DNA of 64,000 nucleotides from a virus: the IMG/VR virus record IMGVR_UViG_3300045988_133735. The stretch is one strand, 5' to 3'. Every line of letters begins with the position of its first letter. Positions within the stretch are counted from its first letter, which is position 1. This document shows, one piece after another, positions 23,205-64,000 of this stretch. The notes under the pieces were generated by a model that was not told where the DNA came from, made no database searches, and saw only the letters and a list, made by a program, of their open reading frames with translations. Made by a program: the position numbers and the translations under genes.

Positions 23205-24839
23205 TTACTTGCCGAGATAGTGTTCCATCAGGCCACCATACGCGGCGTCTGAACCGTTCTGGGTGCCACCCACGCCAAAGCGGACAGTTCCTCTATTGTT
23301 AGTAGTGGGAACATAAGAGAACTCAGCGGACTGACGACCAACCAGCGCATAGCACTTAGTCTCCAGCTCGGCATAAGTAATCTCCGTGTTCTCCTTCAGT
23401 GCGGTATATTCCGCATTTGCGCCCAGCTTTTCATCCATAATAGAGAACAGCTCGTCGCGCTTAGCCTTTTCTGCTGCGGCGACTGCCTCAGCTTCGGCCT
23501 GCTGATATGCTTCCAGCTTAGGTTTGATTTCACTAACTTCATTAGCTGCTTTAGTAAAGCTGTCAGACAGCTCAGCGATTTTGTCAGTCAGAGTAGTAAA
23601 GGCGGCAATAGTGCCAGGCATCACTTCACCCTCATCCCAATCCTCATATGCAACCTTCATGCGCTTGATATTCTCATAATCCAGAACAACATTGTCGCCA
23701 TTCATAGAGTAGGGAATGCCCATCAGCTGCCATGTCTTGGAGCAACGAACCACCACTGTCTCAGGCATCAGATCTTCAAAATAGAAATCTGGAATCATAT
23801 ACTCAGAATCCCAACTAGAAGGATGAGTGTGCTCGGCAAGCTTAGTACCGATCTCGTCCATCAGCTGAACTGTAGTTAGAGTAAACTCATTGTTTTCAGT
23901 AGCGGTGGGCTCATCTTCAAATGCCGGTGCTGTATTTTCAGTCGGAACAGATTCACCCTCGCCCTCATTTTCTGCAGCATTTTCAGCCGCAGGAGTCTCA
24001 CCTTCGCCATCTGCCGAAGTAGTATTCTCAGCAGTCTGGACGTCGGGCTCCTGTACTGTATTTTCTGCCGGAGGAGTCACGGTTTCAGGATTTTCGACCA
24101 CGGTCGTATTCTTCTCGTTTTCATTCATTGGTGTTTTATCTCCTTTCTCCTCATCGGATGGATTTTCATTTTTTGCAGAATAATTCTGCTGGAGAGCCTG
24201 ATACTCATAGAGACGCTCTCGAATTTGAGATGTGATATCGTCAACAGAAAAATTGGCGGTTACACAGCTCCCAGTCATTGCGGGCTGAATCTTCGGATCG
24301 GTGGTCGACAGAATGCAGCAACCATCAAACTTAAAAGACGAAACGGGAGTGATTCCGTCATCGCGTTTCGCCTCGCAAACCATATCGGTCAGTTCAACGC
24401 TGTGGTTTTTTGTCACATCGCGAGTGAAGATATCTACTGGGTCGCCAAATTTTGTCCAGATCAAACCATCGACACGCAAATATTCACGTTCTGTGCCGGT
24501 TCCGTCATCTTTAATAATCCAACGCGGGTTACAAGATTCAGGAATCACACCATAAGCCTGCCCTGCATACAGATATTTGACATCGGTATCGGTGATTCGT
24601 AGCTCGTGCTCATGCCCTTTGAAGTCTTTATCTTCATCGTCCAATTCATTCACTACATAACCAAGAATCGGCATATTGGCGATAGTCGGGACAGCTTTGT
24701 TGATAACATCTTTCGTGAAACTGGTCTTATTAAGATTTGCTCCTGTGTGCATCACATCAATACAGACATCTATGAAGCGAAAATCAGAAGTTTCATATTC
24801 ATTCTTCTTTGAAAAAGAGATTGGATATCGTTGATTCAT
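23205..24839 (-). CDS. Prohead protease/scaffold-like fusion protein (544 aa)
   Basis: N-terminal globular ~200 aa, then an acidic low-complexity linker (..ENPETVTPPAENTVQEPDVQTAENTTSADGEGETPAAENAAENEGEGES..), then a C-terminal coiled coil. Sits just after the portal gene. Confidence 0.4.
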   Translation of the reverse strand: MNQRYPISFSKKNEYETSDFRFIDVCIDVMHTGANLNKTSFTKDVINKAVPTIANMPILGYVVNELDDEDKDFKGHEHELRITDTDVKYLYAGQAYGVIPESCNPRWIIKDDGTGTEREYLRVDGLIWTKFGDPVDIFTRDVTKNHSVELTDMVCEAKRDDGITPVSSFKFDGCCILSTTDPKIQPAMTGSCVTANFSVDDITSQIRERLYEYQALQQNYSAKNENPSDEEKGDKTPMNENEKNTTVVENPETVTPPAENTVQEPDVQTAENTTSADGEGETPAAENAAENEGEGESVPTENTAPAFEDEPTATENNEFTLTTVQLMDEIGTKLAEHTHPSSWDSEYMIPDFYFEDLMPETVVVRCSKTWQLMGIPYSMNGDNVVLDYENIKRMKVAYEDWDEGEVMPGTIAAFTTLTDKIAELSDSFTKAANEVSEIKPKLEAYQQAEAEAVAAAEKAKRDELFSIMDEKLGANAEYTALKENTEITYAELETKCYALVGRQSAEFSYVPTTNNRGTVRFGVGGTQNGSDAAYGGLMEHYLGK

Positions 24840-32855: not shown

Positions 32856-35414
32856 TCATTTCACCCTCGCCTCATAAATTTTTGGTTCAGCTAAACTATA
32901 TCGTTGACCAAGGTATTCATACTTGCCATTCGGGTCGTGAACTGGTAACTGCACTGGAACGGGTTTGATATTTTCAACTACGCCAGCACCAGCCATGTGC
33001 CACAAGAACTTTTTAAACTTGTTAGGATATTTTTCATAGCACAGCACCACTAGAATGTTAGCCAACTCACGAACATCGGGGCAGACCAGCTTGCACTTGT
33101 TACGATACACGTTATAGATTGCTTGCCAGTTGGTTTCATAGGTCTTTGCTTCTTCTTTCGTCATGATGCCTTCAAGCTCTTTACGATAGAGTTTCCAGTT
33201 TTTAGCTTTCTTTTCGAGCTCTAACTGGTTCTTGCGGTATTTATTAAAGTCCAGAAAGATGGCTTCGATCTCATTAAATACATCCTGATCATAGCCGATT
33301 TCAGAATCGTACATTATGTGCCAATTAAAACTGCCAGCGGGCTCTTTATGCCAACGGACACCACGCTCCCAACGCTCGAGACTCATACAGAGCAGATTCA
33401 TATTGCTATGTGCTTTACTGAGATTATGTAAACGTGCGTAGTAAGGGCCATTGTATTTGAAAAAATAAGGCATTCCGCTTGCTTTTGCCCATTTGCTGAT
33501 TTGACGAGGAATAGGGTAGAGTACGCCAGTTTTTGCGAAATCCACAGCTTTTCCGTTTGCAACAGAGAGAAGATCAATATAATCTTCATACAGTTGCTTG
33601 GTCTCTTCTGTACGAGCAACACGATTGTGATATACGGAAGCCATATTGCTAATCTCACCAATCATGCTTTTCAACCCACGAAGAGTACAGGCAAGTTTAT
33701 TTTCAAGGTTATCTACCTGAGCGAGACTGGTGACTTTATCTTCGATATCGATCGTAACATATCCATCGTCTGGAATAGTATTGATAATAATTGATTCATT
33801 TGATAACAAGGTAAGGTCCCCGTCGTAGTCGGCCCCTGAAAGTCTCGCAGGAACGATAGATTTTACATTGATCATACAGCAATTAACGAGATGATTGCAA
33901 TATTTTTGAGTCAAATCGTTATCAACACCCTTTAATTTGACATGTTCTTGGTGGCAGATGTGGGGGTTGCGTCCCAATGCGCGTTCACCCAAAATGACAC
34001 CACGTCGATCAAAACTATAAAATTCATCAGAATCAAGGCACCCATTTATGGGAAGGCCAGCAATTGCTTCCATTAATGCAATTTGGTCAGGAAGTAGAAA
34101 TTTAAATGTTGCATCAAAAAACAATTTTCCACACTTGAATCCATTACGATATTTATCAAGAAGGCTATGAAAATAATCTTTAACGCTAGGTTCGTGAGCC
34201 ATATCAGGATTACGAATAATAGCAGCGACGTAATGATTAAGAGGTTCAGTATTATCAGCCAGCGCACCAAGAAAACAGTATGTAAAAATAGGGTCCCCAC
34301 TTACGATTTTTTCATACCAATCTACAGACTTATCCGCCAAGTGTTTGAATTCTTCAAATGGAACTGAGGAAAGATCTTGTATGAGCTGATAATTACCAAG
34401 GCTAACTAAATTTTCCTTATCTGCTTGATAGTTCCATTTTGCAATGCCTAACGCATGATCGTATTTTAAGGAGAGCTCTTTATAGTGATTCCAGTCACTT
34501 ACAGTACCGGTATGCTTAAAATACTTATAACCTTTATACATACTTTCACAAGCAATAAACATTGGCTCAGCATCACGGGTTACAGAATGCTTTACACCCC
34601 AAATATCAGTAATTTCGGTAACACCACGTTCTTCATAAAAAGCAACATAGTCCATTTCATTAAAAACGCCTTTAAAATATGGCATACGGAAAACCATGCT
34701 ATTAATTCGTTCGGTTGTTCCAATCCGCTGTTCAACTTCACGCATCAAGGAAGGATGTGCGATGCCACATCCGTCAAACATGTTGATTTCAATATCTGTT
34801 TCTTTTTTAGCAATAGCCTTTTGCTTCCATGTGCGTTTAGTGCCAGTTTTTCGATCTGTAAATTCAACCTCTTCATCATGGACATATTTGATTTTTTGAT
34901 TCGGAATAGTCGTGAACGTATCTGGAACAATAACAATTTTTGGGAACCATTCTCTGAGTGCAATACAATGGCAACTCGAAAGTACAAGACCACGATAAGC
35001 ATAGTATTTGCTTAAAACGGTTGGATTGTCACTAAAATCCAAATCCATACTAATTCGTTTATTTACTTCTGGCCAAACATGAGATTCAACCATTGAAAAA
35101 ATAAATTGGCGAATCATAGAGGCACTTCTGTCTCCAAAAGAGAAATGATATTTACCGATTTTTGCGCCATGCTCAATTAAGTGACGAACTACTTTTGGTT
35201 TGTTTTGCGCTCCAGTTGCGTCGATAAATACAATAAATGGATTATAATCATCATAGTTATTAGATACGATTCTAATTTGACGAAGTAACATTGTATCAGA
35301 TTGAAGCACCTGATATTGAATATCGTTCGCAACTTCAGTAGGAATCTTATAATTATATTTTATAAACAAGCTTAGAGGATACTTGCGTACTGTATAACTT
35401 TTAGGACTGATCAA
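32856..35414 (-). CDS. YonO / RdRP-like single-subunit (double-psi beta-barrel) RNA polymerase
   Basis: 852 aa. ..LGRNPHICHQEHVKLKGV.. followed by ..LSGADYDGDL.. (codons at 33816-33836) matches the RNPxxHPGD ... GGDxDGD signature of the cellular RdRP/YonO family. Confidence 0.75.
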   Translation of the reverse strand: MISPKSYTVRKYPLSLFIKYNYKIPTEVANDIQYQVLQSDTMLLRQIRIVSNNYDDYNPFIVFIDATGAQNKPKVVRHLIEHGAKIGKYHFSFGDRSASMIRQFIFSMVESHVWPEVNKRISMDLDFSDNPTVLSKYYAYRGLVLSSCHCIALREWFPKIVIVPDTFTTIPNQKIKYVHDEEVEFTDRKTGTKRTWKQKAIAKKETDIEINMFDGCGIAHPSLMREVEQRIGTTERINSMVFRMPYFKGVFNEMDYVAFYEERGVTEITDIWGVKHSVTRDAEPMFIACESMYKGYKYFKHTGTVSDWNHYKELSLKYDHALGIAKWNYQADKENLVSLGNYQLIQDLSSVPFEEFKHLADKSVDWYEKIVSGDPIFTYCFLGALADNTEPLNHYVAAIIRNPDMAHEPSVKDYFHSLLDKYRNGFKCGKLFFDATFKFLLPDQIALMEAIAGLPINGCLDSDEFYSFDRRGVILGERALGRNPHICHQEHVKLKGVDNDLTQKYCNHLVNCCMINVKSIVPARLSGADYDGDLTLLSNESIIINTIPDDGYVTIDIEDKVTSLAQVDNLENKLACTLRGLKSMIGEISNMASVYHNRVARTEETKQLYEDYIDLLSVANGKAVDFAKTGVLYPIPRQISKWAKASGMPYFFKYNGPYYARLHNLSKAHSNMNLLCMSLERWERGVRWHKEPAGSFNWHIMYDSEIGYDQDVFNEIEAIFLDFNKYRKNQLELEKKAKNWKLYRKELEGIMTKEEAKTYETNWQAIYNVYRNKCKLVCPDVRELANILVVLCYEKYPNKFKKFLWHMAGAGVVENIKPVPVQLPVHDPNGKYEYLGQRYSLAEPKIYEARVK

Positions 35415-35417
35415 GTT

Positions 35418-36320
35418 TTATCCCACGCTCCTTTTTGTTTTCTTTCCTCCTGGTGGAGTTGTAATTGCAGCAACGTCATCCCACCCATTAAATATTCGAT
35501 TATAAATTACACCTCTCGTTAAACCTAGATTAAGAATATCCGCCCATTCAGAATATGTATGAGTCTCTCCATTATAAGTAACGTGATGAGTGTCTGTTTT
35601 ATTATTATTTTGTGTTTTTATATCAGTCCATCTACAATTCTCTGGACAATAATTGCCATTGACATCAATTCTATCAATTGACAAGCCAGAGTTTTCTTTA
35701 TAACCATTTGCAAAAGACCACTCACAAAATGCCAATGCACTATTTTTCCATTCATCACAAACCGTTATACCTCGTGCACCATAATGGGGATAACTTTCAC
35801 ACTTTTGATTATAACAACGGTCCATCATACCAGAGTATGTTTGATACATTGGTAATTTCCAAGCTCCGCCTTGTGTTGCATTAATACATCCACAACTTTG
35901 CGTATATCCATGCCTTAAAAGATCAGTTCTTGCAACGGTTTCATTCCCACAATCGCATTTACATCTCCATTGTGTGGTTGTTTTCCCTTTGGGCGAAATA
36001 TAATCTGCCGCTCGTTCAATAACTGTTAATTTCCCAAATCGTTTTCCGGTTAAATCAATTAGACGAGAGCCCTTATATTCGCAATTCTTATCTCCACAAG
36101 TTTTTGCCATCCCTCGTCTTAAAATATCATCTCTTGCAATTCTCGTTCGTCCACAATCGCACTGACAAACCCACTGCCTAAATTTTTGACGACCATTATA
36201 TTTGATTACTTTTTCATCAAGAGCTTTAATAACTGTAAGATGTTCGAATTTCTTTCCAATCATTTTTTCTCTTGCTTTTATATCTGCTGGCGTGACTTCA
36301 ATAATTGTTTCATCAGCCAT
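35418..36320 (-). CDS. DNA-binding protein with duplicated Cys-rich repeats and an HNH/AP2-like C-terminal half
   Basis: Two copies of GK[KR]FxxLTVI..W.C.CDCG......D.LR.G....CG. Then ..YGARGITVCDEW..SIDRIDVNGNYCPENCRW.. and ..YSEWADILNL.. Confidence 0.35.
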   Translation of the reverse strand: MADETIIEVTPADIKAREKMIGKKFEHLTVIKALDEKVIKYNGRQKFRQWVCQCDCGRTRIARDDILRRGMAKTCGDKNCEYKGSRLIDLTGKRFGKLTVIERAADYISPKGKTTTQWRCKCDCGNETVARTDLLRHGYTQSCGCINATQGGAWKLPMYQTYSGMMDRCYNQKCESYPHYGARGITVCDEWKNSALAFCEWSFANGYKENSGLSIDRIDVNGNYCPENCRWTDIKTQNNNKTDTHHVTYNGETHTYSEWADILNLGLTRGVIYNRIFNGWDDVAAITTPPGGKKTKRSVG

Positions 36321-36334
36321 TTTTCTAAACTCCT

Positions 36335-36673
36335 TTACTTTAATTTGTTATGGAAGTGATCGTCATCGCCAGAGTCATCATCGCTGTCATCCAACTCGCT
36401 ATTGCACACAACGTAATAACAATCAATTGCACTGCTAATATAAAATACAAGAAGGGGAGTAATAACCAGCGCCACGAATAACACTTTTCCAATAATCTGA
36501 TAGGCCAAGTAGAAGATTACCAGTGTCTCAGCAGCGTGCAGTATCCAATTAAACCAGTCTTTGCTATTGATAAAAGCAGATACCGCAATAGTCAAAGGAA
36601 TATTTGTACTCATCATGCCCTGCTGGCCGTCTTCGTCTTGCAGATCGTCAGACTTCTTAGGATCTTTATCCAC
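36335..36673 (-). CDS. Small membrane protein (112 aa)
   Basis: GTG start with AAGGAGG 9 nt upstream. At least two hydrophobic helices and an acidic C-terminus. Confidence 0.5.
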   Translation of the reverse strand: MDKDPKKSDDLQDEDGQQGMMSTNIPLTIAVSAFINSKDWFNWILHAAETLVIFYLAYQIIGKVLFVALVITPLLVFYISSAIDCYYVVCNSELDDSDDDSGDDDHFHNKLK

Positions 36674-36687
36674 TGTTGCATTCCTCC

Positions 36688-36864
36688 TTACTCTTCATCA
36701 TCCCACTCGCGGCGTTGCTTGTGGGATTTTTTACTATATTTAGACGCCGGAGCTTCCTGCGCTTTTTCGATCTCCTGCATAAACTGGTTTTCAATCATGC
36801 GCTGTTTGCGGGCTGCTCTCATATATGTACTCTTAGAATTCTTATCTCGTTTGCGGTCACTCAT
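36688..36864 (-). CDS. Small basic protein (58 aa)
   Basis: ATG 36864 overlaps the upstream stop as ATGA. GAGGAGG lies 9 nt upstream. The track start at 36909 is less likely. Confidence 0.4.
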   Translation of the reverse strand: MSDRKRDKNSKSTYMRAARKQRMIENQFMQEIEKAQEAPASKYSKKSHKQRREWDDEE

Positions 36865-37135
36865 CGCCGTAATCCTCCTCACTGTCGTTATCGTATTCTT
36901 CCAACCCATATAGCTTATGATATAAATATCGGGTCAAAGAAGGGGACATAGGCGTATAGTCTTCCATCCAGAGCGTATCATACAGTGAAGCATCACCAAT
37001 AACTTCCTGCCAGTCCGCGTATACTTGAATCGCGTCAATGATATTTTCTACTGTGACACTATAATTACGCACCGCATCAACTACGGCGAATCCAATATTA
37101 AAAATATCCTGTTTTGAAAATTCTTCTTCTTTCAT
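36857..37135 (-). CDS. Hypothetical acidic protein (92 aa)
   Basis: ATG 37135 lies 7 nt after GGAGGA. First gene after the C[RHK]SLL series and lacks the tail. Confidence 0.5.
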   Translation of the reverse strand: MKEEEFSKQDIFNIGFAVVDAVRNYSVTVENIIDAIQVYADWQEVIGDASLYDTLWMEDYTPMSPSLTRYLYHKLYGLEEYDNDSEEDYGDE

Positions 37136-37146
37136 AATAGTCCTCC

Positions 37147-37368
37147 TTATAGAAGCGATTTGCACCGAAGTGGCTTCTTTAGTTTATCTAATTGGTTGTA
37201 AATATCTGCGATTTGCTCTTCTATAGTTTTTATTCTATCCCATGCGGATTCTTCTACAGGTTGTTCTTTGGGTATGACAATAGCTGAATTTTTTGCTAAA
37301 TCGCTCGATATCCAATAACCATAAGGGTTCTCCGGATTTCCAATAAAATCTAAGTCAATAACATCCAT
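37147..37368 (-). CDS. Small protein with C-terminal tail ..KKPLRCKSLL (tail family member)
   Basis: 73 aa. AGGAG lies 8 nt upstream of the ATG. Tail codons TGC AAA TCG CTT CTA TAA. Confidence 0.6.
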   Translation of the reverse strand: MDVIDLDFIGNPENPYGYWISSDLAKNSAIVIPKEQPVEESAWDRIKTIEEQIADIYNQLDKLKKPLRCKSLL

Positions 37369-37380
37369 TTGGCGTCTCCT

Positions 37381-37608
37381 TTACAGTAAACTGTGACATA
37401 CAAATGATTTCTTTTTCTTTATTTCAATACTTACTTCAGGACACCGCTCACGAAAAAAATCATATATTGCTTTATCTGAAATGCAATCAAGTCCAACTAA
37501 CTGTCCATCCGAAATTAACAATTCATCATCATAAGACCTGATACTGTCTCCGCGAGCGACCGCATCTATCAGAAGTCTTGCTCCTTCTTCTGTCCATTCA
37601 ATAATCAT
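37381..37608 (-). CDS. Small protein with C-terminal tail ..KKSFVCHSLL (tail family member)
   Basis: 75 aa from ATG 37608, which overlaps the upstream stop as ATGA. Tail codons TGT CAC AGT TTA CTG TAA. Confidence 0.6.
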   Translation of the reverse strand: MIIEWTEEGARLLIDAVARGDSIRSYDDELLISDGQLVGLDCISDKAIYDFFRERCPEVSIEIKKKKSFVCHSLL

Positions 37609-37817
37609 AAAAGGCTCCTGCAAATAAACGATTTCGAATTTCTAATCATATACACAATTTGATCGTATATTTCTTTATCGGTTCTTCCCCAAAATCCATA
37701 GTATTCAAAATCTGGTTTAATTTTGCTTTCATCTATATCAGGTGCAAATGGATAAAGCTTTTTATATTCTCTGACGAAACCTTTAATCATATTGAGTTCA
37801 TCAATCTCATCTCTCAT
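37605..37817 (-). CDS. Small protein with C-terminal tail ..SKSFICRSLL (tail family member)
   Basis: 70 aa. Tail codons TGC AGG AGC CTT TTA TGA contain the SD and ATG of the next ORF. Confidence 0.6.
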   Translation of the reverse strand: MRDEIDELNMIKGFVREYKKLYPFAPDIDESKIKPDFEYYGFWGRTDKEIYDQIVYMIRNSKSFICRSLL

Positions 37818-38221
37818 AATAGGCTCCTACATCTGAGTGGCCGTCTACTGGTTCGAATAATATCTTCCAAGCATTCTGGCACGACAGAAAACCCTTTAAA
37901 CAAATCAAACGTATTGCGGTATATTAAATCATCTATATTTATCTGTCGCATTTTATTTTCACAGATGTATCGAACATCAGCTTCTCCATACAGCTTAGTG
38001 AATAATTTGCAATATTCAAACGACTTGGCCAATCCAAGATCTTCATCAAAGTAGAACATAGTACACTGTGCATTCATTTTACTATAGTCAAACTTTTCAC
38101 GAAATTCATCCGGCGATTTGCATATTACGATTACTTTGCGGTGTTTTTGTACAGTGTCTAAATTATCATACCAGTTACATACTGCTTGGTAGTTCTCTGG
38201 CTTTACGAATAATACTCTCAT
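37814..38221 (-). CDS. Small protein with C-terminal tail ..RRPLRCRSLL (tail family member)
   Basis: 135 aa. Tail codons TGT AGG AGC CTA TTA TGA. Confidence 0.6.
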   Translation of the reverse strand: MRVLFVKPENYQAVCNWYDNLDTVQKHRKVIVICKSPDEFREKFDYSKMNAQCTMFYFDEDLGLAKSFEYCKLFTKLYGEADVRYICENKMRQINIDDLIYRNTFDLFKGFSVVPECLEDIIRTSRRPLRCRSLL

Positions 38222-38251
38222 TGCGGTTTCCTCTGTGGCGCTGCGGCGCTC

Positions 38252-38671
38252 TTATAACAAGCTGTGGCATACTAGATTCTTTTTATTTCGTTCATGCCAT
38301 GATGCTTTGATTTTTACGACATGATCTGGGGTCCACATATAGTCAAGCTCGATAGGATGTGCTAAATCCAGATTGCTATCCTTATTAACAAGTCGGTAAT
38401 AATTCATATCATTAAGCTGATCGAATTCTTTTGCAAGCCGTGTCGCTACATCACTCATGGAATTATATGTATACCCGGGTCCAAACCATATCTGATGAAA
38501 TATTTTTGAACCATCGTTTGCTCTTAAATACCACGCTCTAAGATCGCGATACGATTTGAATGGCATGACCCACACCATGTTGTTGTCACTTAATGGGACA
38601 TAGATTCCGTTTTTGGCGTCATAATTTGCAGAAGTCAGCATTGCGACTCTGGCGGTTACAGTGTAATTCAT
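38252..38671 (-). CDS. Small protein with C-terminal tail ..KKNLVCHSLL (tail family member)
   Basis: 139 aa. Tail codons TGC CAC AGC TTG TTA TAA, then a 30-nt spacer with a GC hairpin and AGAGGAA. Confidence 0.6.
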   Translation of the reverse strand: MNYTVTARVAMLTSANYDAKNGIYVPLSDNNMVWVMPFKSYRDLRAWYLRANDGSKIFHQIWFGPGYTYNSMSDVATRLAKEFDQLNDMNYYRLVNKDSNLDLAHPIELDYMWTPDHVVKIKASWHERNKKNLVCHSLL

Positions 38672-38931
38672 AGTAAACTCCTACACGTGAGAGGTTTTAA
38701 ATACCATGGCGTTGGTTTTGGCTCCCACTGGTTAAACAAACGTTCAAAGTAGAACCTTTCGTTTTTCTCGTCCAAGCACAATCTCACGTCGTGATAATTC
38801 ACATATTTAGCGTCGGTATCGGCGAAACATTTTAAAATAGCGGACATCTCATTGTAAGTTTCTTTGAAGTAACTGGAACGTCCCGTCTGTACGTAATCAA
38901 TCGCTTCTTTTATAATTTCTTCTCGTGTCAT
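38668..38931 (-). CDS. Small protein with C-terminal tail ..LKPLTCRSLL (tail family member)
   Basis: 87 aa. Tail codons TGT AGG AGT TTA CTA TGA. Confidence 0.6.
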   Translation of the reverse strand: MTREEIIKEAIDYVQTGRSSYFKETYNEMSAILKCFADTDAKYVNYHDVRLCLDEKNERFYFERLFNQWEPKPTPWYLKPLTCRSLL

Positions 38932-38958
38932 ACTATTGGGTTCCTCTAACTGTTGAAT

Positions 38959-39306
38959 TTATAATAGGCTATGGCAAACAAATGATTTTTTAGATTGCAT
39001 TGTATACTTGCCGACTAATTGAAGATATTTTTTGTAGATTGCCTCTGCGGCGTCTCCATCAATTGTTTCTATATGTTGTTCAGACATTATATCGACTTTG
39101 AAACGTTCTATTGATGAATCAAGTATGGAAGCTAATTCTGAATCATAATGTATGTATCTGCGGTCTACATCGACATGAATTACAATAGAATCTATTTTTT
39201 TATTAAGTTCTTCGCTAAGCTGTTCACAGATATCCTTACTTGCGAGTTCTAGTATTTCTTTCTCATTCTTCTTGTAATTAGTCATTCCAAAAACATCTGT
39301 TATCAT
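38959..39306 (-). CDS. Small protein with C-terminal tail ..SKKSFVCHSLL (tail family member)
   Basis: 115 aa. Tail codons TGC CAT AGC CTA TTA TAA, then a 27-nt spacer with AGAGGAA. Confidence 0.6.
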   Translation of the reverse strand: MITDVFGMTNYKKNEKEILELASKDICEQLSEELNKKIDSIVIHVDVDRRYIHYDSELASILDSSIERFKVDIMSEQHIETIDGDAAEAIYKKYLQLVGKYTMQSKKSFVCHSLL

Positions 39307-39788
39307 AGCAAACTCCTACAGGTCAGTTGCACTGTTGGTCTTCCTATGGTTGGATCGTCCGCGTCCTCGATTTCTGGGTGAAACGCAACTTCGGATGGAT
39401 CATATGTAGCTATAGAGCAGGCGGCAATATTACGACCTCCTATGATATGTTGCATACATAAATCAACATCGTCGATTACAACTTGTTTTGCGTTATATCC
39501 AAAGCTGGCGAGTTGGAAATCTAAGGCGTTAAAAACTCGAATAGTCAGTCGTTTTCCCTCAGTATCAACATAGACTTCTCGCGAATCAACTCTGTATCCT
39601 CTATATGTCCATTTCCCGCAAGATGATTCGCATAAAAATATTATTGTTTTTGTCACTAGCTCCACATTAAGAGATGTTGGTACAATAATATCACAGTCAT
39701 TTTCAATTGCGTATTTACATATTTGATAGGTGCGACCACCGCCGCGTGGGGCGAATATTTTATACATACTTTGTAAAGCCTCTATCAA
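39303..39788 (-). CDS. Small protein with C-terminal tail ..TVQLTCRSLL (tail family member)
   Basis: 161 aa. TTG start overlaps the upstream stop. Tail codons TGT AGG AGT TTG CTA TGA. Confidence 0.55.
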   Translation of the reverse strand: MIEALQSMYKIFAPRGGGRTYQICKYAIENDCDIIVPTSLNVELVTKTIIFLCESSCGKWTYRGYRVDSREVYVDTEGKRLTIRVFNALDFQLASFGYNAKQVVIDDVDLCMQHIIGGRNIAACSIATYDPSEVAFHPEIEDADDPTIGRPTVQLTCRSLL

Positions 39789-40381
39789 TCTTCTGTGAAA
39801 TCAGAAAATGGAATAAATTCAATATTGTCTGGAAGCTCAATAGTGAGACTTCTTGCGACTGCAATACCATGTTCTGTGTGATAAAATGTCATATACCGAG
39901 CGAGTTGCTTCAATGCTTTTGTGTCAAAATCATGTAATTTACATTCGACTGGGATAAGTTCTCCATTACGGTCAATCCATGCGTCGGGTTTGTGCTTCGG
40001 ATTGTCTCTGTGATCCACAATTTTCCCACATCCAAGCTCTTCTGCTTTCTTTTTAAATAAATCTTGATAATAAAATTCATTATGCATAAGTTCTTTTAAT
40101 TTTGCACAAAAAACATATTGTCGCATCATTTCAAAACTGTCGGACCATTCGTTCTGTAAATAATCAATTGCTCTATTAAGGTCAAATAAAGACTTTTTAT
40201 TGTCACACATAGCCATCATTTCAAGAAACCAATATTTATCTAAAATAAGTCCGTCATGATTTTTTATTATCATATTATCTCCATGTAAATTTTTGAACAC
40301 TGTATACTTTTCATCATTGAAATTTATTTCTTCATATGGAAATTCTAATTTGATAGTTTTTTGGTTGTCAGTCATATTCAT
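39785..40381 (-). CDS. PD-(D/E)xK nuclease-like protein (198 aa)
   Basis: ..KPDAWIDRNGELIPVECKLH.. fits the D...(hydrophobic)ExK pattern. Confidence 0.4.
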   Translation of the reverse strand: MNMTDNQKTIKLEFPYEEINFNDEKYTVFKNLHGDNMIIKNHDGLILDKYWFLEMMAMCDNKKSLFDLNRAIDYLQNEWSDSFEMMRQYVFCAKLKELMHNEFYYQDLFKKKAEELGCGKIVDHRDNPKHKPDAWIDRNGELIPVECKLHDFDTKALKQLARYMTFYHTEHGIAVARSLTIELPDNIEFIPFSDFTED

Positions 40382-40824
40382 TCTCCTACTGCATGCGCAG
40401 CACTATGTAATTTGCCAAATGGTGTAATCAAATATCGATGTAGGGCTGTGTCTTCCATCTCTTTTTGTAACTGATGGAACTTAGCCATATTATCAAGATA
40501 AGAGGGAAGCACTTTTTCTACGATCTCATAGGTCAAGGCGTATATCTGCAACCATTCTTTCATCGTCATTCCACGATGCACCATAGGACGAATCATCTGC
40601 TCAATCTGGTCGCGGATATAATCAATAGAGAAAAAATCAATTTCGTGTAGTATACTCATTCTTTCTATGTAGTTCTTAAATAACTCCACTGTCTGTTCGG
40701 CTTCGGCTTCTCGGTAGCGGTCGTACAATTCTTTTGCAAGACTATCAATGGCGTCATAGTTCCATCCGTCAGTAGAAGACCAGTAGTCCGCTACTTTCAG
40801 GCCGCTTATTTTTACTTCTATCAT
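40378..40824 (-). CDS. Hypothetical protein (148 aa)
   Basis: ATG 40824 with AAGGAG 9 nt upstream. The longer track ORF would overlap the phoH-like gene. Confidence 0.5.
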   Translation of the reverse strand: MIEVKISGLKVADYWSSTDGWNYDAIDSLAKELYDRYREAEAEQTVELFKNYIERMSILHEIDFFSIDYIRDQIEQMIRPMVHRGMTMKEWLQIYALTYEIVEKVLPSYLDNMAKFHQLQKEMEDTALHRYLITPFGKLHSAAHAVGE

Positions 40825-40837
40825 CTTGCGCGACTCC

Positions 40838-42163
40838 TTAATCGAGCAGATCAGCCAGACGGGCAGTCTCAGAACGTTCCGTAATAGGCAAGTAAACCGT
40901 TCCAAAGCGTTCATTTCCTGTCAGTTTATCAATCAACTTCTGAATGCCGTTATTTCGTTCGAAAGCTACATCGTCAATCTGTCTCAAGTCACCGTTAATC
41001 CACAGTGTGCTGCCCTCGCCAACTCGACCAATCAATAACTGAATATGCTGCTTAGTGAGGTTTTCCGCTTCACTGCAGTAAATTATAGATCGATTGAAGC
41101 TGCGTCCACGAATAAAGCCGAGCGGCTGAATCTCTACCCATCCATCAGTGATAGCTCGCTCCAATGCAACCTCGCCGCCAAGACAGTCGGCTAGAATTGC
41201 TGCGAATGGATATACCTTTTCAAGCATAGAGCCGGGAAGGAAGCCAATTTCTTTTGTGTCTTTGACCTCGATATTGTTGCGAACCCAAACGATCTTGTCG
41301 TATTTGCCCTTTTCGATCAGATCAACAGCGTGATTAACCATCAGGAAGTCCTTACCGCTGCCATATACACCAAGAAGCAGTTTGATTGTAATGTCGTCAT
41401 TCTGAAGTAGGTCAAAGGCGAGCTTTTGCTGATTGTTGAGTGGTTTGATCTTGCCAGAGTAGGCGGTGTTCAGGTTCTTGTATTTAATAGGTACATAGCG
41501 CGAGCCATCCCAGCGAAGCCCAGCCGTGTTGCCATCTGCGTCTGCATTTGGAATCAATACATAACCGTTTGTTGGTGTATCAAACAAGTTCTTTTGCTCG
41601 ATATCTTTGGAGTAAGCCATCGCCAGCGCTTCCTCGCCACCGTCTTCTAGAGCAACCTCTGTCCAGCCAGCGTAGTCATTGTGAGCACCGCCGTGATCAA
41701 GAGATAGTTCACAGGGCAGTTTCATAACCCGTTGCGCAAGATTGAAGCAGCTTAGGTCACTGGTAACAAAACGGAAGGAATCAATCAGCGTGGTAAGTTC
41801 GGCGGCTTCATTGGCACTGTCGGCGTCTAACTCTTTTGGAAGGTTGTCCAGTTTGTTCTGCAGTTCATTCAGATACCATCGAGCAGCAGCCATAATCGTT
41901 CCGTCGTTGTTGTCTTTGACTGGGACATCATTCAGGATCGAGAATAGCTGATGGTAATCAATAGATACTACTGTGTACGCTGCTGGATGTTCGGCGAGCA
42001 GACGAGTAACGGTGTGAGCCTTAGCTTTGGTGGCTTCATCCTTCTTGCCACTGGTCTTGATGTCTTCCAGCTCATAGAGAGTGATGTCAGCAATTAGAAA
42101 CTGCTGCGCAAGCAACGTGTCAGGTGGGATATCTAGTAAGGCAGAGGTGTCATAGAATTTCAT
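40838..42163 (-). CDS. phoH: PIN-domain / PhoH-like NTPase fusion (PhoH2 architecture)
   Basis: N-terminal MKFYDTSALLD.. (PIN). C-terminal ..GVYGSGKD..IGFLPGSMLEKVYP..IQPLGFIRGRSF..IIYCSEAENLT..INGDLRQID.. matches the remembered PhoH signature blocks. Confidence 0.8.
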   Translation of the reverse strand: MKFYDTSALLDIPPDTLLAQQFLIADITLYELEDIKTSGKKDEATKAKAHTVTRLLAEHPAAYTVVSIDYHQLFSILNDVPVKDNNDGTIMAAARWYLNELQNKLDNLPKELDADSANEAAELTTLIDSFRFVTSDLSCFNLAQRVMKLPCELSLDHGGAHNDYAGWTEVALEDGGEEALAMAYSKDIEQKNLFDTPTNGYVLIPNADADGNTAGLRWDGSRYVPIKYKNLNTAYSGKIKPLNNQQKLAFDLLQNDDITIKLLLGVYGSGKDFLMVNHAVDLIEKGKYDKIVWVRNNIEVKDTKEIGFLPGSMLEKVYPFAAILADCLGGEVALERAITDGWVEIQPLGFIRGRSFNRSIIYCSEAENLTKQHIQLLIGRVGEGSTLWINGDLRQIDDVAFERNNGIQKLIDKLTGNERFGTVYLPITERSETARLADLLD

Positions 42164-50512: not shown

Positions 50513-51157
50513 GAATTTCCAGCAATTTCCTACATACATAATGCGAGTCCAGATGATATTATAAACGAAGTTTTCGCAGAGGGAACTCCGGTAGTGTGAA
50601 AACGCACCGCCGGGGTTTAATGCGGCTACTGGTTCTGCAGAACTGGTACTGGTCCCAAGCCCAGAAATGCAATCGCAAGTGGGGCACATAGCGTCACGAT
50701 CGAAGCGGTAGCACAAACAGAAGGGCGCTCCACTGATCCTAATGAAATTGACACTGATTTGATGTGATGGCCACACAAATATAATCAGAAGACTAAAGTA
50801 GATTAGGCAGTTCCACATTAAGTGAGCGAAACTAAACGAAAGGAGGGTTTATAGCTTGAATTGTAAAATCAGTTACCGCTCGCTAGGAGTGGTCTTTGGT
50901 GCAAGGGTCGCGTCTTACTCCAATGAGAAAATTTTCATGGGATGGCGATACAAACTGTTTTGACGTTTAACTGAAATTTCCAAATTAAATAGAATTGACG
51001 TTGCAAGTGCTCGTTGCATCCGAGCATAAGTTCGCATCATACATACGAGTTTAGCGGTAGTCGCAAATAGGCGTAATCGACCTATAAGGTTCGCTATAAT
51101 GCGGGGCTGGGTGATTCCCGAACGGACAAGTTAAACGTATGTTAAGGATAAGAAACC

Positions 51158-58264: not shown

Positions 58265-58513
58265 GCTATCTACTTTCCTCCATTGTCCTTGGGACTGACA
58301 GCCGGGAAAGACCGGCATATATCCGGGTGTAGCGAAGCTGGTATCGCGCCAAATTTGGGATTTGGAGATTTCGCCCGTTCAAGTCGGGTCACTCGGACCA
58401 TGGTGCAGGGTCTTTCCTTTCTACCTGTGCCTATTGTGTGTATAAAACGGTTTCCATTAGACGAAACCGCGTGGCTGAAAATGCCGAGCAGGTACGATAA
58501 TCCTGCCTTATAT

Positions 58514-58900
58514 GGGCCCGAAAGGTTTTCGACAGGGCTATGAAAATTCACAATTCGCAGGTCGGCCATCACCTTACGAGGCAAAAAACAATAAACGCTA
58601 ACTACAATAGTTATCGCTGCGCGGCTTGATGCCGTGCCCAAAACAGCATCCTGATAGGCAGGTAAATGTTTGATGGTTCAAAGAATAAATCCCGGAACCC
58701 GATGTAAACGGTAATAAACACCGGCGTTCTCGGACGCTAAAACCGAGTGGTGGAGTGATGTAACAAACCGTTACGTCCCTGGGTTTGCTGTGTTGGCGGC
58801 ATGAATTCCTTTCAAAAATTCTAAATGCTAACTATTGCGTAAGAAGATTGTGTACGAGTAATAGTTCTGGACGTGGGTTCGAATCCCACCGGGTCCACCA
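58514..58900 (+). ncRNA. ssrA: tmRNA (transfer-messenger RNA)
   Basis: 5' GGGCCCGAAAGGTTTTCGACAGGG and 3' GGACGTGGGTTCGAATCCCACCGGGTCCACCA. The acceptor stem has a G3-U70 pair. Candidate tag frame GCT AAC TAC AAT AGT TAT CGC TGC GCG GCT TGA (58597-58629) gives ANYNSYRCAA. 387 nt. Confidence 0.85.
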
Positions 58901-59263
58901 GTGGCGCAAGCCGCAAAGCTAGGTTCGATGCGACAGCGTAGTGTAGTGCGAGGTCGCTGGGGTGGCGCAATTCCACCGTGGATGCAATGCATTCATAACG
59001 CTTTGACCGAAATTGTGCGAACAGACTGCGACGGGGTAGCTCCTCGTGGAGTGAGGGTCTGGTGACAACATGAGTAGGCGATAGGATGACCTGCGAAAGT
59101 GGTCTAGTCAGTTTGGTGCCCGGACTGGCGGAGAGTGGATTTAAAAGGGCAGCCTTTGAGGATGGACTCTGGGGAAGACAAAATGTACCTAGTTGTATCT
59201 GCTGACGCGGTTAAGTCGCATTGCACATCGCCGATGCTGTTACATGGTTAAATCCTCCTCTCT

Positions 59264-59339
59264 GTGGCGTTAGTTCAGTTGGCAGAACACTTGGCTCATA
59301 ACCGAGTAGTCGTGGGTTCAAAGCCCTCACGCCGCACCA
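59264..59339 (+). tRNA. tRNA with CAT anticodon (elongator Met or Ile2), CCA encoded
   Basis: Cloverleaf folded by hand: acceptor GTGGCGT/ACGCCGC, D arm GTTC/GAAC, anticodon loop CTCATAA, T loop TTCAAAG. One U-U mismatch in the T stem. Not initiator-like. Confidence 0.75.
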
Positions 59340-59368
59340 TTTCGTGTACGAATATCAACAAATCAAAA

Positions 59369-59390
59369 AGAGGTAAATCAAAATGGCTGA
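59369..59390 (+). repeat. 22-bp perfect direct repeat, copy 1 (AGAGGTAAATCAAAATGGCTGA)
   Basis: Identical to 59625-59646. Contains the SD and the ATG GCT GA start. Confidence 0.9.
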
Positions 59391-59646
59391 GAATGCAGCT
59401 AAAAATACCGAAAGATATCAATCCTATAAACTTCAATGGATGTTGGATCATGGACACACATTAGAGGAAATTTTTAGAGAACTCTACATGATTCAAAAGG
59501 AATACTTGGAAGACGGAGAGTCATGCCCAAGCATTTGGACGTTGTTGGATCGATGGGAAAAGGATATTGGGTTTGGTGGAGAATGTTGGGCTTGCTTTGA
59601 TGAATGGCTGGAGAATGAAGGTAGAGAGGTAAATCAAAATGGCTGA
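59383..59646 (+). CDS. Hypothetical protein (87 aa) bracketed by the 22-bp repeats
   Basis: The SD and start lie in repeat copy 1. The stop lies in repeat copy 2. Confidence 0.55.
   Translation: MAENAAKNTERYQSYKLQWMLDHGHTLEEIFRELYMIQKEYLEDGESCPSIWTLLDRWEKDIGFGGECWACFDEWLENEGREVNQNG
59625..59646 (+). repeat. 22-bp perfect direct repeat, copy 2
   Basis: Identical to 59369-59390. Supplies the SD and start of the radical SAM gene. Confidence 0.9.
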
Positions 59647-60310
59647 CAAGTATCTCAGTATCATTACAAACTTCGGCTGCCACTATAGCTGCCCTGAGTG
59701 TATTGTCCGCAATAACAAGCTCAAGATGACACCGACAGACGAGTATTCTTCTTATATGCAGTTAGAGCATGTTCTGAAGAACGAATGTAATGACTGTAAT
59801 TGGGTATCTGTGTCTGGCGGCGGTGATCCACTTTATCACTGGTGGGAACATCAGGCGTGGTGGACAGGATTCTTTTCGGTGTGTAAAGAACTTGGTCGCA
59901 AGATTGAGTTGCATACGAGCTATTATGATTTTGATCATGATGATGGAATTTTAATGTTTCCATTCGAACAGTTTGATAGAGTTGTGTATCATTTGCATTG
60001 TGCAGAGGAGCTTTATAAGATTTGTCGCCGGGGTAAAGAAATCGTTCGAGTGGTATTCGTTGTGGACGATTCTATGGACGAATACGAAGTTAGCAGGATT
60101 TCAGCTATTGTTCAAGAAAGCGACGATATCGACGAGCTTACATTCCGGCAACGCGTGGATGCAAACTATAAGCCGACCTATCATTTGCGCGGTCTCCTGC
60201 TGGCGGGGCATAAAAAGGCTTGGTGGTATGTGACACAGTGCGATTACAATACTTACTTCCACAACGGTAAACTGTACACGAAGTACACGGATATCTTTGA
60301 GAAGGAGTAA
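59639..60310 (+). CDS. Radical SAM domain protein (223 aa; NrdG/QueE-sized)
   Basis: N-terminal CHYSCPEC (CxxxCxxC) and ..VSGGGDPL.. (a SAM-binding GGE-like motif). Confidence 0.5.
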   Translation: MADKYLSIITNFGCHYSCPECIVRNNKLKMTPTDEYSSYMQLEHVLKNECNDCNWVSVSGGGDPLYHWWEHQAWWTGFFSVCKELGRKIELHTSYYDFDHDDGILMFPFEQFDRVVYHLHCAEELYKICRRGKEIVRVVFVVDDSMDEYEVSRISAIVQESDDIDELTFRQRVDANYKPTYHLRGLLLAGHKKAWWYVTQCDYNTYFHNGKLYTKYTDIFEKE

Positions 60311-60315
60311 TTCAG

Positions 60316-60624
60316 ATGTACATTGTCGTAAGCGATTATACCAACGAAAAAGTTGACATCTACAAATCAGTAAGTTTCGATAAAGCATTTCAGGCGAGAA
60401 GCGATGCGATTGATTTTGCTGCCCGTAGCTATCAGAGCTTCTTTGACAATATGCCCAGCGATGAAGCTGCACGGTATGAAAACGCAACGCGAATTAACAC
60501 TGACTCTTATGCGGATTTCTGTGGGTGTGCTTTGTGTCCGTATCCCGAGTATGCTATCGGAGCTGCGGTTGATAATGGTGAAGATAATCACATGTACTAC
60601 ATGGTATTTAAGGTGGAGGAGTGA
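60316..60624 (+). CDS. Hypothetical protein (102 aa)
   Basis: GAAGGAG upstream. Confidence 0.55.
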   Translation: MYIVVSDYTNEKVDIYKSVSFDKAFQARSDAIDFAARSYQSFFDNMPSDEAARYENATRINTDSYADFCGCALCPYPEYAIGAAVDNGEDNHMYYMVFKVEE

Positions 60625-60628
60625 TTTC

Positions 60629-60941: not shown

Positions 60942-60953
60942 AAGGAGGAACGA

Positions 60954-61865: not shown

Positions 61866-61954
61866 CCTCGTAGGAACGGAGACATTAAACCCGTGTCCTG
61901 AGATCAACACAAGATCTAAAAACTGTGTGGCAGCTCGGAAAGACGAGCAAGTAT

Positions 61955-63095: not shown

Positions 63096-63344
63096 ATGAA
63101 TATCGTTATTGAAACTAAGGACGACAAATATGTAGCCGGTGTTTATGCTGACGAGGGAGAGAATACCGAAAACGATACGATCATTGATTGTGCTGTAAAC
63201 GGGCTTCTTGCTATTATTCGTTTTTATATTCTTAAAGACGAAACCCTTACGATGGAAAACAAGAAGAATGTTGTGTCTGACCTATGCGATGAAATTAAGA
63301 AAAAGCTTTTGGAAGCAATTGAAGAGGAGAGCGCAGTCGTATGA
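63096..63344 (+). CDS. Hypothetical acidic protein (82 aa)
   Basis: TAGGAG upstream. Confidence 0.55.
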   Translation: MNIVIETKDDKYVAGVYADEGENTENDTIIDCAVNGLLAIIRFYILKDETLTMENKKNVVSDLCDEIKKKLLEAIEEESAVV

Positions 63345-63730
63345 ATTCTATTATCAGTCCGTGGGTGTTTTATCTGATTGGCATGGCTGACACCATTCAG
63401 ATTTTGGCGCTTTTCGCTTCTATTTGTTTTGTTGCCATCTCTGGTTATTTGTGGTTTGATTGGATGAATGATTTCGCTCGTTATGGAGAAAAGGATGAAG
63501 ATGTTTTAAGAGAGCGCAAGATTGTTGTAAAGGTGTCAATTGCGGCAATTGTGAGCCTAGCGATTCTTGTCTTTACCCCTTCTTCCAAGACCTGTTATAA
63601 AATGCTCGCCGCCAATATGTTTACAGAAAAGAATGTAACTGCTGCAACTGAATATGTCACTGACGTAATCGACTATGCAGTCGACAAAGTAAAAGAACTT
63701 GACCCTGCAACTGAAAATGAAAGGAGCTAA
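63341..63730 (+). CDS. Membrane protein (129 aa)
   Basis: ATGA overlap. Three hydrophobic helices. Confidence 0.55.
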   Translation: MNSIISPWVFYLIGMADTIQILALFASICFVAISGYLWFDWMNDFARYGEKDEDVLRERKIVVKVSIAAIVSLAILVFTPSSKTCYKMLAANMFTEKNVTAATEYVTDVIDYAVDKVKELDPATENERS

Positions 63731-63735
63731 ACATT

Positions 63736-64000
63736 ATGATCACCATGTCACATGAGGAAGTTCTTGAGACGATTCCGTTTATGTTTGTTTGCGAAACTCG
63801 GGAAGGTGCTCGTTGGAACAGTGGTACTCGCCGTAGGCTCTGGAACGAACAGTTTACCAAACAGGAACAAGCAGCGTGTGCAAGTTTGTTTAAGATGGCG
63901 CATGAGTGGGCGCTCATTCGCGGTGTCCCTGATGTTGTTCGGATGGATCAGTCTACATATTGGCTGTGGATCAAGCTTGGCGAGTTTTGTGAAATGCTTT
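63736..64000 (+). CDS. Hypothetical protein, 5' part (runs off the right edge)
   Basis: ATG 63736 with AAGGAG 9 nt upstream. The frame is open to the end of the window. Confidence 0.5.
   Translation, partial: MITMSHEEVLETIPFMFVCETREGARWNSGTRRRLWNEQFTKQEQAACASLFKMAHEWALIRGVPDVVRMDQSTYWLWIKLGEFCEML

Follow-up and report, generated by a model that had tools for sequence, protein, structure and literature searches.

Phage biology offers few examples of short, portable address tags; one of them, the capsid targeting sequence (CTS) of phage T4, became a widely used tool. In the T-even phages, this sequence belongs to a hyperplastic locus in which tandem, otherwise unrelated small proteins carry a common short terminal address peptide (PMC3012670). 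Here, we describe a C-terminal tail, C-[R/H/K]-S-L-L, on eight small and otherwise unrelated proteins encoded side by side in a 64,000-nt stretch (the window) of the IMG/VR virus record IMGVR_UViG_3300045988_133735, together with its counterparts in related phage genomes, and conclude that it is a protein-level recognition tag. As a short terminal peptide common to otherwise unrelated, tandemly encoded small proteins, it has its closest anatomical analogue in the T-even locus. The CTS, however, is N-terminal, is cut by the prohead protease and targets the scaffolding core, whereas the tag described here is C-terminal, falls into at least three classes and occupies two loci.

Conserved C-termini are also handled by bacterial relatives of the ubiquitin machinery. 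In the type II cyclic oligonucleotide-based antiphage signaling system (CBASS), proteins that are not ubiquitin-like proteins (Ubls), but whose C-terminal region is disordered and whose very end is conserved, serve as E1 and JAB substrates (bioRxiv 10.1101/2022.03.31.486616). The likeness to Cap2/Cap3 of CBASS lies in the tagged proteins, which have a predicted disordered C-terminus with a conserved extreme end, and in the ThiF/E1 and JAMM-motif genes found among the tagged genes. The differences are equally plain: the present system is encoded by a phage rather than by a host for defense; each genome has 10-20 different tagged proteins as opposed to one enzyme; the tail ends in Leu-Leu instead of Gly or Ala; a CD-NTase is absent; and the E1 is a stand-alone protein of 224 aa with no recognized E2, accompanied by a separate Ubl-like protein.

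Bil/Bub and ThiS/MoaD-like operons offer a second point of comparison, as they too combine a small β-grasp-like protein with an invariant end, a JAMM protease and a ThiF-family E1. Moreover, the Ubl of the tagged lineages bears a short C-terminal extension, as in precursors trimmed by JAMM proteases. Unlike these operons, the phage genes include no recognizable E2, encode a Ubl that ends in D-N-A rather than G-G, are phage-borne, and stand together with genes for a 500-aa protein and a reverse transcriptase of the retron type. To our knowledge, no known Ubl-E1-JAB system has a proteome-wide C-terminal tag on other proteins. The ssrA tag added by transfer-messenger RNA (tmRNA) is likewise short and hydrophobic and exposes a free carboxylate at an unstructured C-terminus, but the present tag is gene-encoded instead of being added in translation, occurs in genome-specific classes and is conserved as far back as positions -5 and -7. 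A survey of the literature for the tail strings and for combinations of E1, JAB and retron genes in phages yielded nothing relevant, in line with the initial annotation of this DNA, which knew of no described phage system built on such a tail. The finding extends two known kinds of system, namely terminal address tags on diversified phage proteins and conserved C-termini handled by E1 and JAB proteins.

A C-terminal tail selected as a peptide

The open reading frame (ORF) table and a codon-level reading bear out the initial observation of eight adjacent minus-strand ORFs, spanning 37147-39788, whose products end in C-[R/H/K]-S-L-L. Among the 443 window ORFs of at least 40 aa, only these eight have a C[RHK]SLL ending, and the flanking ORFs end quite differently (..EEDYGDE and ..PFSDFTED). 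The bodies had been judged unrelated by eye; indeed, BLASTP of the tail-trimmed proteins against a database of the eight sequences gave a best E-value of 0.002, and no body has a significant match in Pfam or PHROG. The tail is real, and chance is excluded as its source. The eight genes are as follows.

39303..39767, minus strand: tagged gene 1, 154 aa from ATG 39767; tail ..TVQLTCRSLL
38959..39306, minus strand: tagged gene 2, 115 aa; tail ..KKSFVCHSLL; stop TAA and, downstream of it, a separate Shine-Dalgarno sequence
38668..38931, minus strand: tagged gene 3, 87 aa; tail ..LKPLTCRSLL; ATGA stop/start overlap
38252..38671, minus strand: tagged gene 4, 139 aa; tail ..KKNLVCHSLL; stop TAA
37814..38221, minus strand: tagged gene 5, 135 aa; tail ..RRPLRCRSLL; flavodoxin-like α/β body
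37605..37817, minus strand: tagged gene 6, 70 aa; tail ..SKSFICRSLL; Shine-Dalgarno sequence within the tail, ATGA overlap
37381..37608, minus strand: tagged gene 7, 75 aa from ATG 37608; tail ..KKSFVCHSLL; stop TAA
37147..37368, minus strand: tagged gene 8, 73 aa; tail ..KKPLRCKSLL; Ser encoded by TCG, stop TAA

Homologues indicate that two of these genes are shorter than called: gene 1 was assigned by the ORF tool to a TTG at 39788 (ORF 39303-39788) and gene 7 to 37381-37623, while their true starts are likely 39767 and 37608, respectively. The body of gene 1 is a small P-loop-like domain with the motifs PRGGGRT and VVIDDVD.

At the nucleotide level, the tails are spelled in many ways, as had been noted at the outset: Cys is TGT or TGC; the basic residue AGG, CAC, CAT or AAA; Ser AGT, AGC or TCG; and Leu TTG, TTA, CTA, CTT or CTG. 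In the four genes that end in CRSLL, the AGG-AGY codons spell the AGGAG Shine-Dalgarno sequence of the next gene, and the TGA stop overlaps its ATG (ATGA); in gene 3, for example, the tail codons AGG AGT serve in this way. The four CHSLL/CKSLL genes stop with TAA and are followed by a separate Shine-Dalgarno sequence. Because only four of the eight tails contain a Shine-Dalgarno sequence, the tail can be said to make room for the ribosome-binding site without being explained by it; as a cause of the tail it was rejected, since it fits only the R-S codons of the four CRSLL genes. Downstream of gene 4, a GC-rich palindrome precedes the Shine-Dalgarno sequence. This intergenic hairpin (window 38222-38251, minus strand) keeps its position across the genomes that carry the window's version of the tail (class A, defined below), is a perfect palindrome in relatives (GCGCTGCAGCGC) and an imperfect one in the window (GCGCCGCAGCGC), and may be a processing or attenuation site.

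To follow the tail beyond the window, 78 IMG/VR loci were fetched with 10-kb flanks, with the YonO-like single-subunit RNA polymerase gene (32856..35414, minus strand) as the anchor. Of 81 related loci, 64 had the tail, which was attached to some 20 families of unrelated bodies. The C-terminal pattern search proposed in the initial annotation recovered the exact C[RHK]SLL ending in 26 related loci, and the tail persists while the bodies turn over. A relaxed pattern matched 410 plus-strand ORFs in the 78 loci as against one minus-strand ORF (11,871 ORFs in total); hits to the exact pattern or to the shared triplet were confined to the coding strand and to a zone 1-4 kb upstream of the polymerase gene. 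In a search for recurrent C-terminal triplets, SLL tails appeared in nearly every locus with a polymerase identity of at least 61%, and remoter relatives, including the examined locus of Thomasclavelia phage TR-TP2, showed no recurrent tail.

Across these genomes, the tail takes three main forms: [KR][KR]x[FL]xC[RHK]SLL in class A, xxE[CY]xC[EDNRQ]SLL in class B and xxxxxFxSLL in class C. With the rare variants PLL, TLL, SLV, SLI and SML, the core becomes [C/F]-x-[S/P/T]-L-[L/I/V]-COOH, or more fully Φ(-7)-x-[C/F](-5)-x-[S/P/T](-3)-L(-2)-[L/I/V](-1)-COOH. Every tail ends in Leu, Ile or Val, and Pro replaces Ser in 30 of 200 unique tails. The class follows the genome rather than the body. Thus, the family of gene 2 (family 19, present in 57 loci) carries a class-A tail in class-A genomes and a class-B tail in class-B genomes, and that of gene 1 carries a class A, B or C tail according to the genome. 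In alignments, including those of gene 5, homology of the bodies runs to one common point, beyond which each protein continues with its genome's own class of tail. Searches of a collection of 5.8 billion proteins placed the homologues of two families in this clade only, with class C in at least 14 clusters; 113 of the 120 listed homologues of gene 1 end in [CF]x[STP]L[LIV], and all full-length homologues of gene 5 that were retrieved keep the tail, one class-A homologue having Phe in place of Cys. The order of the cassettes varies between genomes, and bodies are gained or lost. The initial proposal of a C-terminal tag common to a diversified set of proteins is thus supported, with the tail kept while the bodies turn over, are reordered, and come and go.

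AlphaFold2 modeled gene 5 with a mean predicted local distance difference test (pLDDT) score of 72 and with residues 110-123 and 127-135 below 50; for gene 1, it predicted a folded α/β core followed by residues 112-154, tail included, with pLDDT below 50. Both models therefore show an α/β body and then a low-confidence stretch of 25-40 final residues that contains the tail, and a fold search of the PDB with the two models gave no significant match (a weak one for gene 1 was to a terminase ATPase, E=0.02). Judged from these models, the tag sits at the free end of what is predicted to be a flexible C-terminal segment.

That selection acts on the peptide follows from the high synonymous variation exactly where the amino acids are invariant. 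Among 168 distinct tail DNA sequences, Ser is encoded by AGT, AGC, TCA, TCG, TCT and TCC, Leu by all six of its codons, and the stop by TAA and TGA. Within families, positions -5, -3, -2 and -1 have 12, 15, 20 and 13 extra synonymous codons, respectively, against 1, 2, 0 and 4 extra amino acids, while at every other position between -20 and -4 the synonymous variants number 4-13 and the amino-acid variants 14-27; the way in which sequences were chosen biases this count only slightly. The count bears out the initial view of a conserved peptide rather than a DNA repeat, and the codon patterns indicate that the tail is under purifying selection as a peptide. Exceptions are few: with one spurious family of non-coding ORFs set aside, 14 of 424 members of the tail families depart from the pattern, four by a change of Ser to Gly and ten within a single family. 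That family occurs in tailed and tailless versions, and in one of its copies a CAA-to-TAA nonsense change removed the tail.

A site for modification of Cys had been among the suggested purposes of the tail. This is unlikely, as class C has Phe at -5 and one class-A homologue has Phe for Cys. For the same reason, namely the Phe of class C, Cys chemistry such as an autoinducing-peptide thiolactone, metal binding or lipidation was rejected; a CaaX box would require Cys at -4, and the Cys of the tail is at -5 and is not invariant.

Concerted tail classes and a second tagged cluster

The tagged set is not confined to the neighborhood of the polymerase gene. Loci anchored on genes of the divergent arm showed further tagged genes. 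At the right edge of the window lie two plus-strand genes; the homologue of the first served as an anchor for 57 loci that extend past the window's right end.

63341..64000, plus strand: right edge of the window, with a 129-aa gene (63341-63730) followed by the start of an 88-aa untagged gene

Each of these divergent-arm loci has 5-12 further tagged genes, whose tail class is that of the genome. In related genomes, the distance from base 64000 to the start of the second tagged set ranges from a few hundred bases to about 0.9 kb. Right up to that base, the window aligns collinearly with class-A loci (90-97% nucleotide identity), which makes it very probable that its genome continues likewise. 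The tail had been taken to mark a diversified set of early proteins transcribed together, and this view stands in part: the set is diversified, but it is not confined to one operon. About 10-20 small proteins are tagged per genome, and the eight of the window make up one of two clusters.

In contrast to the unrelated bodies of the window cluster, most of the distal tagged genes belong to one paralogous family, M-x-YKYKPGDKV..., of 85-98 aa (PHROG 7488), with 4-8 copies per genome (for example, L197 17603-19546, L207 17480-20252 and L225 17733-20330). The distal arm of class C has nine xxG[VI]xFxSLL genes, and a GenBank fragment has twelve SLL genes.

Three or more tag classes exist, and one class is common to all tagged genes of a genome. 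In all 41 contigs represented in both sets of loci, the distal arm and the polymerase-proximal cluster are of the same class (B in 34, A in 6 and C in 1), although the DNA between the clusters recombines across classes; genes between and beside them reach 96-100% identity from one class to another. The RNA polymerase itself is not linked to class, with up to 99.8% identity between class-A and class-B genomes. A class-specific partner encoded near the polymerase gene was sought and rejected, as no gene there is cleanly class-specific (top A-B identity 83-99.8%).

Between the tagged genes of the distal arm lies a block of untagged genes, which in related genomes begins about 1.4 kb past base 64000 and encodes a Ubl, a 500-aa protein (family 10), a JAB protein, an E1 and a reverse transcriptase, among others.

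Family 6: 140 aa; no Pfam, PHROG or PADLOC match
Family 7: about 75 aa; ubiquitin-like, with an invariant K-x-D-N-A end
Family 10: about 500 aa; no Pfam, PHROG, PADLOC or PDB match; invariant Cys, His and Asp
Family 11: about 300 aa; JAMM/JAB protease with an E...H-S-H-x7-S-x2-D motif
Family 12: 224 aa; ThiF/E1, Pfam PF00899 over the full length (E=1.6e-20), PADLOC CBASS E1-E2 (Cap2) (E=1.6e-15)
Family 13: 411 aa; retron-type reverse transcriptase, PADLOC RT_II-A (9e-38), at L197 15689-16924 directly after the E1 gene
Family 14: 112 aa; no matches
Family 15: 271 aa; tyrosine integrase by Pfam (1.5e-17), encoded directly past the end of the block

The assignments differ in strength. The E1 has both the GxGxxG and the DMDxVExKNxxNQ motifs. 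The JAMM motif does not vary among 12 sequences drawn from lineages with and without tags, and it is accompanied by a weak PADLOC JAB match (E=0.0035). For the Ubl, the best PDB hits are non-significant and fall on β-grasp Ubls (ubiquilin, SAMP2 and PF1061); none of the block proteins compared with solved structures showed significant remote homology. The stop of the reverse transcriptase gene overlaps the start of the 112-aa gene. A diversity-generating retroelement was rejected as an explanation for the reverse transcriptase, which matches retron profiles and has no repeat of the template/variable type nearby. Identity among block genes is about 90% within a class and falls to 38-73% from one class to another.

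More distant lineages of the block were reached through homologues of the 500-aa family 10 protein. In L254 and L256 (one lineage) and L257 (another), the block is kept and no tagged gene occurs in the 17-21 kb fetched; the block is thus older than the tags. In these three loci, the JAB protein has 187-219 aa and the Ubl ends exactly at ..DNA, whereas in the tagged lineages (classes A, B and C as well as L258 and L259) the JAB protein has 283-325 aa and the Ubl has 1-4 residues after DNA. The longer JAB protein has a low-complexity linker and a conserved C-terminal motif, KTVTGxAAPK...YY..NPxxL...NSSCxPY. The number of residues that separate tagged from untagged lineages is 0 in the E1, 2 in the reverse transcriptase, 3 in family 10 and 12 in family 6.

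The phage and its other genes

The window encodes a YonO-like RNA polymerase, a PIN-PhoH ATPase, an HNH endonuclease, a terminase, a portal and tape-measure proteins, and one relative also has YonJ- and YonG-type genes; the phage is thus a distant SPbeta-like phage of about 145 kb. No close DNA match was found among GenBank phages. The nearest cultured relatives are Thomasclavelia and Enterocloster phages, with a polymerase identity of 37% for Thomasclavelia phages TR-TP1 and TR-TP2, neither of which gave an E1 match; remoter relatives of the polymerase are binned with metagenome-assembled genomes of Clostridia, Oscillospiraceae and Lachnospiraceae. Untagged genes adjoin the window cluster on both sides.

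36857..37135, minus strand: first untagged gene after the cluster, MKEEEF...EEDYGDE, family 49
39785..42163, minus strand: untagged genes upstream of the cluster, encoding PIN-PhoH (40838-42163), a protein of 148-178 aa (40378-40914) and a protein of 198 aa (39785-40381)

Family 49 occurs in 27 related loci of all three tail classes, and in each of them it delimits the cluster on the downstream side. It is the first of three untagged genes (window 36335-37135, minus strand) that all have strongly acidic ends (..EEDYGDE, ..REWDDEE and ..DDSDDDSGDDDHFHNKLK); the middle protein is otherwise very basic, and the acidic ends form a second, looser C-terminal theme. The PhoH gene (E=2.5e-37) is split into ORFs of 176 and 274 aa in many class-B loci. 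The RNA polymerase ORF is likewise in two or three pieces in some relatives, while in others its match spans 3.3-3.65 kb as compared with 2.56 kb. These split or long polymerase genes, found at L006, L041, L047 and L069-L078 (with the polymerase gene at about 10001), suggest insertion of introns, inteins or genes for homing endonucleases. Exchange of sequence between tail classes is also freest in the polymerase region. An HNH endonuclease gene (window 35418-36320, minus strand; PHROG 374, 3e-73) lies between the tagged cluster and the polymerase gene; it occurs in only 28 of 81 loci and thus looks mobile.

Two further elements had been named in the initial annotation. A host-type promoter at 42351-42323, from which the tagged genes were thought to be transcribed, was not confirmed: it matches 10 of 12 consensus positions, but the 33 promoter-like matches of the region do not exceed the 26.5 +/- 5.5 expected after shuffling. 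An Ntn-hydrolase-like ORF at 8354-8920, put forward as a possible partner of the tail, is not supported either, as it is on the plus strand inside a region gene-called as minus-strand coding. A Pfam scan of 50 window proteins, 20 of which were also compared with PHROGs, detected no PDZ, protease or adaptor domain; the domains found were PhoH, HNH, metallophosphatase, SPFH, portal, terminase and tape-measure only. In the head module, a 544-aa protein (window 23205-24839, minus strand; PHROG 3313) adjoins the portal. Its identity is 81% between classes A and B and 66-73% to class C, compared with 86-100% for the neighboring portal and terminase.

The plus-strand part of the window is rich in RNA genes. 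A tRNA cluster (window 58323-63054, plus strand) has 7-8 genes (Pro, Met, three Leu and Gly, with Rfam adding 62397-62465); small ORFs and an SPFH/Band-7 lipoprotein-like gene (60954-61865) lie among them. Flanked by the tRNA-Pro and tRNA-Met genes is a tmRNA (window 58514-58900, plus strand; 96 bits in Rfam and also found by ARAGORN), whose tag, ANYNSYRCAA, ends in CAA and not LAA. When loci were anchored on its neighboring gene, the tmRNA was present in 2 of 65; its tag is identical in class-A and class-C genomes, and a class-B contig has the variant ANNNSYRCAA, one residue off. A link between this tmRNA and the tail was considered on account of their common aromatic-x-Cys flavor and was rejected, as the tmRNA is so rarely present and its tag does not track class. 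A match to the type-P5 twister ribozyme (window 50575-50664, plus strand; 47.1 bits against a gathering threshold of 37.6) lies among small plus-strand genes.

Candidate readers of the tag

The genome-wide, concerted change of the tails points to a single co-evolving reader, and we infer that one reader for all tags, changing together with them, is the most economical explanation. This reader is probably encoded by the phage, because phages that are otherwise near-identical use different classes. Gene neighborhood and phyletic pattern lead us to a tentative preference, held well short of conviction, for a phage-encoded, co-evolving partner that would most likely be found in the Ubl/JAB/E1 block. 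Within the block, sequence comparison suggests the JAB protein as the best candidate, because its conserved C-terminal extension is confined to the tagged lineages; family 6 is a weaker candidate. The E1 is unlikely to be the class-specific reader, as none of its residues separates tagged from untagged lineages.

Should the block read the tag, a tagged protein could be recruited for conjugation or deconjugation of the Ubl, be trimmed by the JAB protease, or be activated at its own C-terminus in the style of Cap2 and cGAS. A more specific scheme, which we regard as doubtful but conceivable, is a phage Ubl system whose clients would present [C/F]-x-S-L-L on a flexible tail, be recruited through the JAB extension or a neighboring block protein, and then be modified, trimmed or ligated. 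New effector genes would join such a system by gaining a tail of 5-8 residues, and tail and reader would drift together into the incompatible classes A, B and C, limiting cross-talk between co-infecting phages.

Several points weigh against a reader in the block. The block occurs without tags and so has a function of its own, and it has its own Ubl, which is the obvious substrate for the E1. Besides lacking any residue that distinguishes tagged from untagged lineages, the E1 is the least class-divergent of the block genes. Known E1 substrates end in Gly, Ala or Asn, not Leu-Leu, and no E2 domain was recognized with Pfam, PHROG, PADLOC or PDB in the 500-, 140- and 112-aa block proteins. The JAB assignment consists of a motif and a weak hidden Markov model match, a PDB profile search having found nothing. 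The gain of the tags, of the JAB extension and of family 14 may be a single evolutionary event and hence one data point, and the class concordance of the two arms could come partly from lineage structure instead of co-adaptation. Finally, the block lies outside the window, so that its presence in this genome is deduced from collinear relatives.

Other readers can be imagined. The tail could be a C-terminal degron for a host AAA+ protease (ClpXP, ClpCP, FtsH or Lon), providing ssrA-like turnover of early takeover proteins. We consider this unlikely. A free hydrophobic C-terminus on a predicted disordered segment would suit such a role, as would small proteins with no assigned function that are positioned for possible early expression; strict conservation of only the last few residues recalls the textbook recognition of ssrA by ClpX, and a phage with its own tmRNA interacts with the tagging and proteolysis system. 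Yet the tail ends in SLL, unlike the tag of that tmRNA or an LAA-type end; the tmRNA is sporadic and has the same tag in classes A and C; the conserved positions reach back to -5 and -7, farther than ClpX reads; and a constant host protease does not predict three classes, each uniform genome-wide, in phages with near-identical polymerase, terminase and tRNA regions. Nor is class switching among otherwise near-identical phages predicted if the tail docks the proteins on a host hub that reads free C-termini, such as a PDZ-type domain, the sliding clamp or RNA polymerase, which we hold to be quite improbable; in that case, numerous effectors would gather at a single host machine. S-L-L-COOH does fit a class I PDZ ligand ([S/T]-x-Φ-COOH), and alternating hydrophobic residues at -7, -5 and -1 suggest β-strand addition. 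Pro at -3 is tolerated, however, which is atypical of a PDZ ligand; bacterial PDZ domains are, by textbook knowledge, mostly extracytoplasmic, and inspection by eye revealed no signal peptides or membrane segments in the tagged proteins; the clamp motif needs a Gln that the tail lacks; and Pfam gave no PDZ match in the 50 window proteins or in 10 distal-arm proteins (8 untagged and 2 tagged).

A signal for packaging into the virion, which would dock the small proteins on scaffold, portal or capsid for injection with the DNA, is rather unlikely as well. The tagged genes lie outside the structural module and are interleaved with the Ubl/JAB/E1 block, not with head genes, even though the anatomy of the locus resembles that of the T4 internal proteins, with tandem diverse small proteins that have a common short terminal peptide (PMC3012670), and though cassette turnover and reordering are as expected of anti-defense cargo. 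The 544-aa head-module protein is among the more class-divergent of the conserved genes, but its divergence is modest and possibly a coincidence. It is improbable, too, that the tagged proteins are direct E1 substrates, with the C-terminal Leu adenylated and ligated to a target as in Cap2-cGAS and with the JAB protease reversing the bond. The proximity of E1 and JAB genes to the tagged genes speaks for it; an E1 that is no different in lineages with tags and in those without, a dedicated Ubl whose C-terminus never varies, a Leu-Leu end in place of the small Gly/Ala end of known E1 substrates and the lack of any E2 domain found all speak against it. Most improbable of all is conservation at the level of nucleic acid, in which the conserved element would serve in ribosome binding or coupling, as a linker for recombination between cassettes, or in the processing of RNA, and the peptide would be its by-product. 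The AGGAG and overlapping ATG in the CRSLL tails agree with this, and tails that flank every cassette while the order is permuted could act as short recombination homologies. Against it stand the half of the window tails that have no internal Shine-Dalgarno sequence, the use of both AGY and TCN codons for Ser, of six Leu codons and of variable stops, the synonymous variation that is high exactly at the invariant amino acids, and the tagged genes that stand singly beside large untagged genes on the other arm.

Whatever its reader, a tag of 5-8 residues groups about 10-20 unassigned proteins of abundant Clostridia phages in the human gut into one functional set, and the tag classes constitute a natural co-evolution experiment that points to a reader. 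In practice, the tail is a ready regular expression for annotating such genes. Its three mutually distinct versions also make it a candidate for an orthogonal tag with which proteins could be targeted or controlled in Gram-positive hosts. If the Ubl/JAB/E1 block is indeed the reader, bacterial ubiquitin-like signaling would extend from host defense (CBASS and Bil) to the side of the virus. It would also bring a new logic of substrate choice, in the form of a virus-encoded bacterial Ubl pathway with a portable, proteome-wide C-terminal tag, for which we found no published description.

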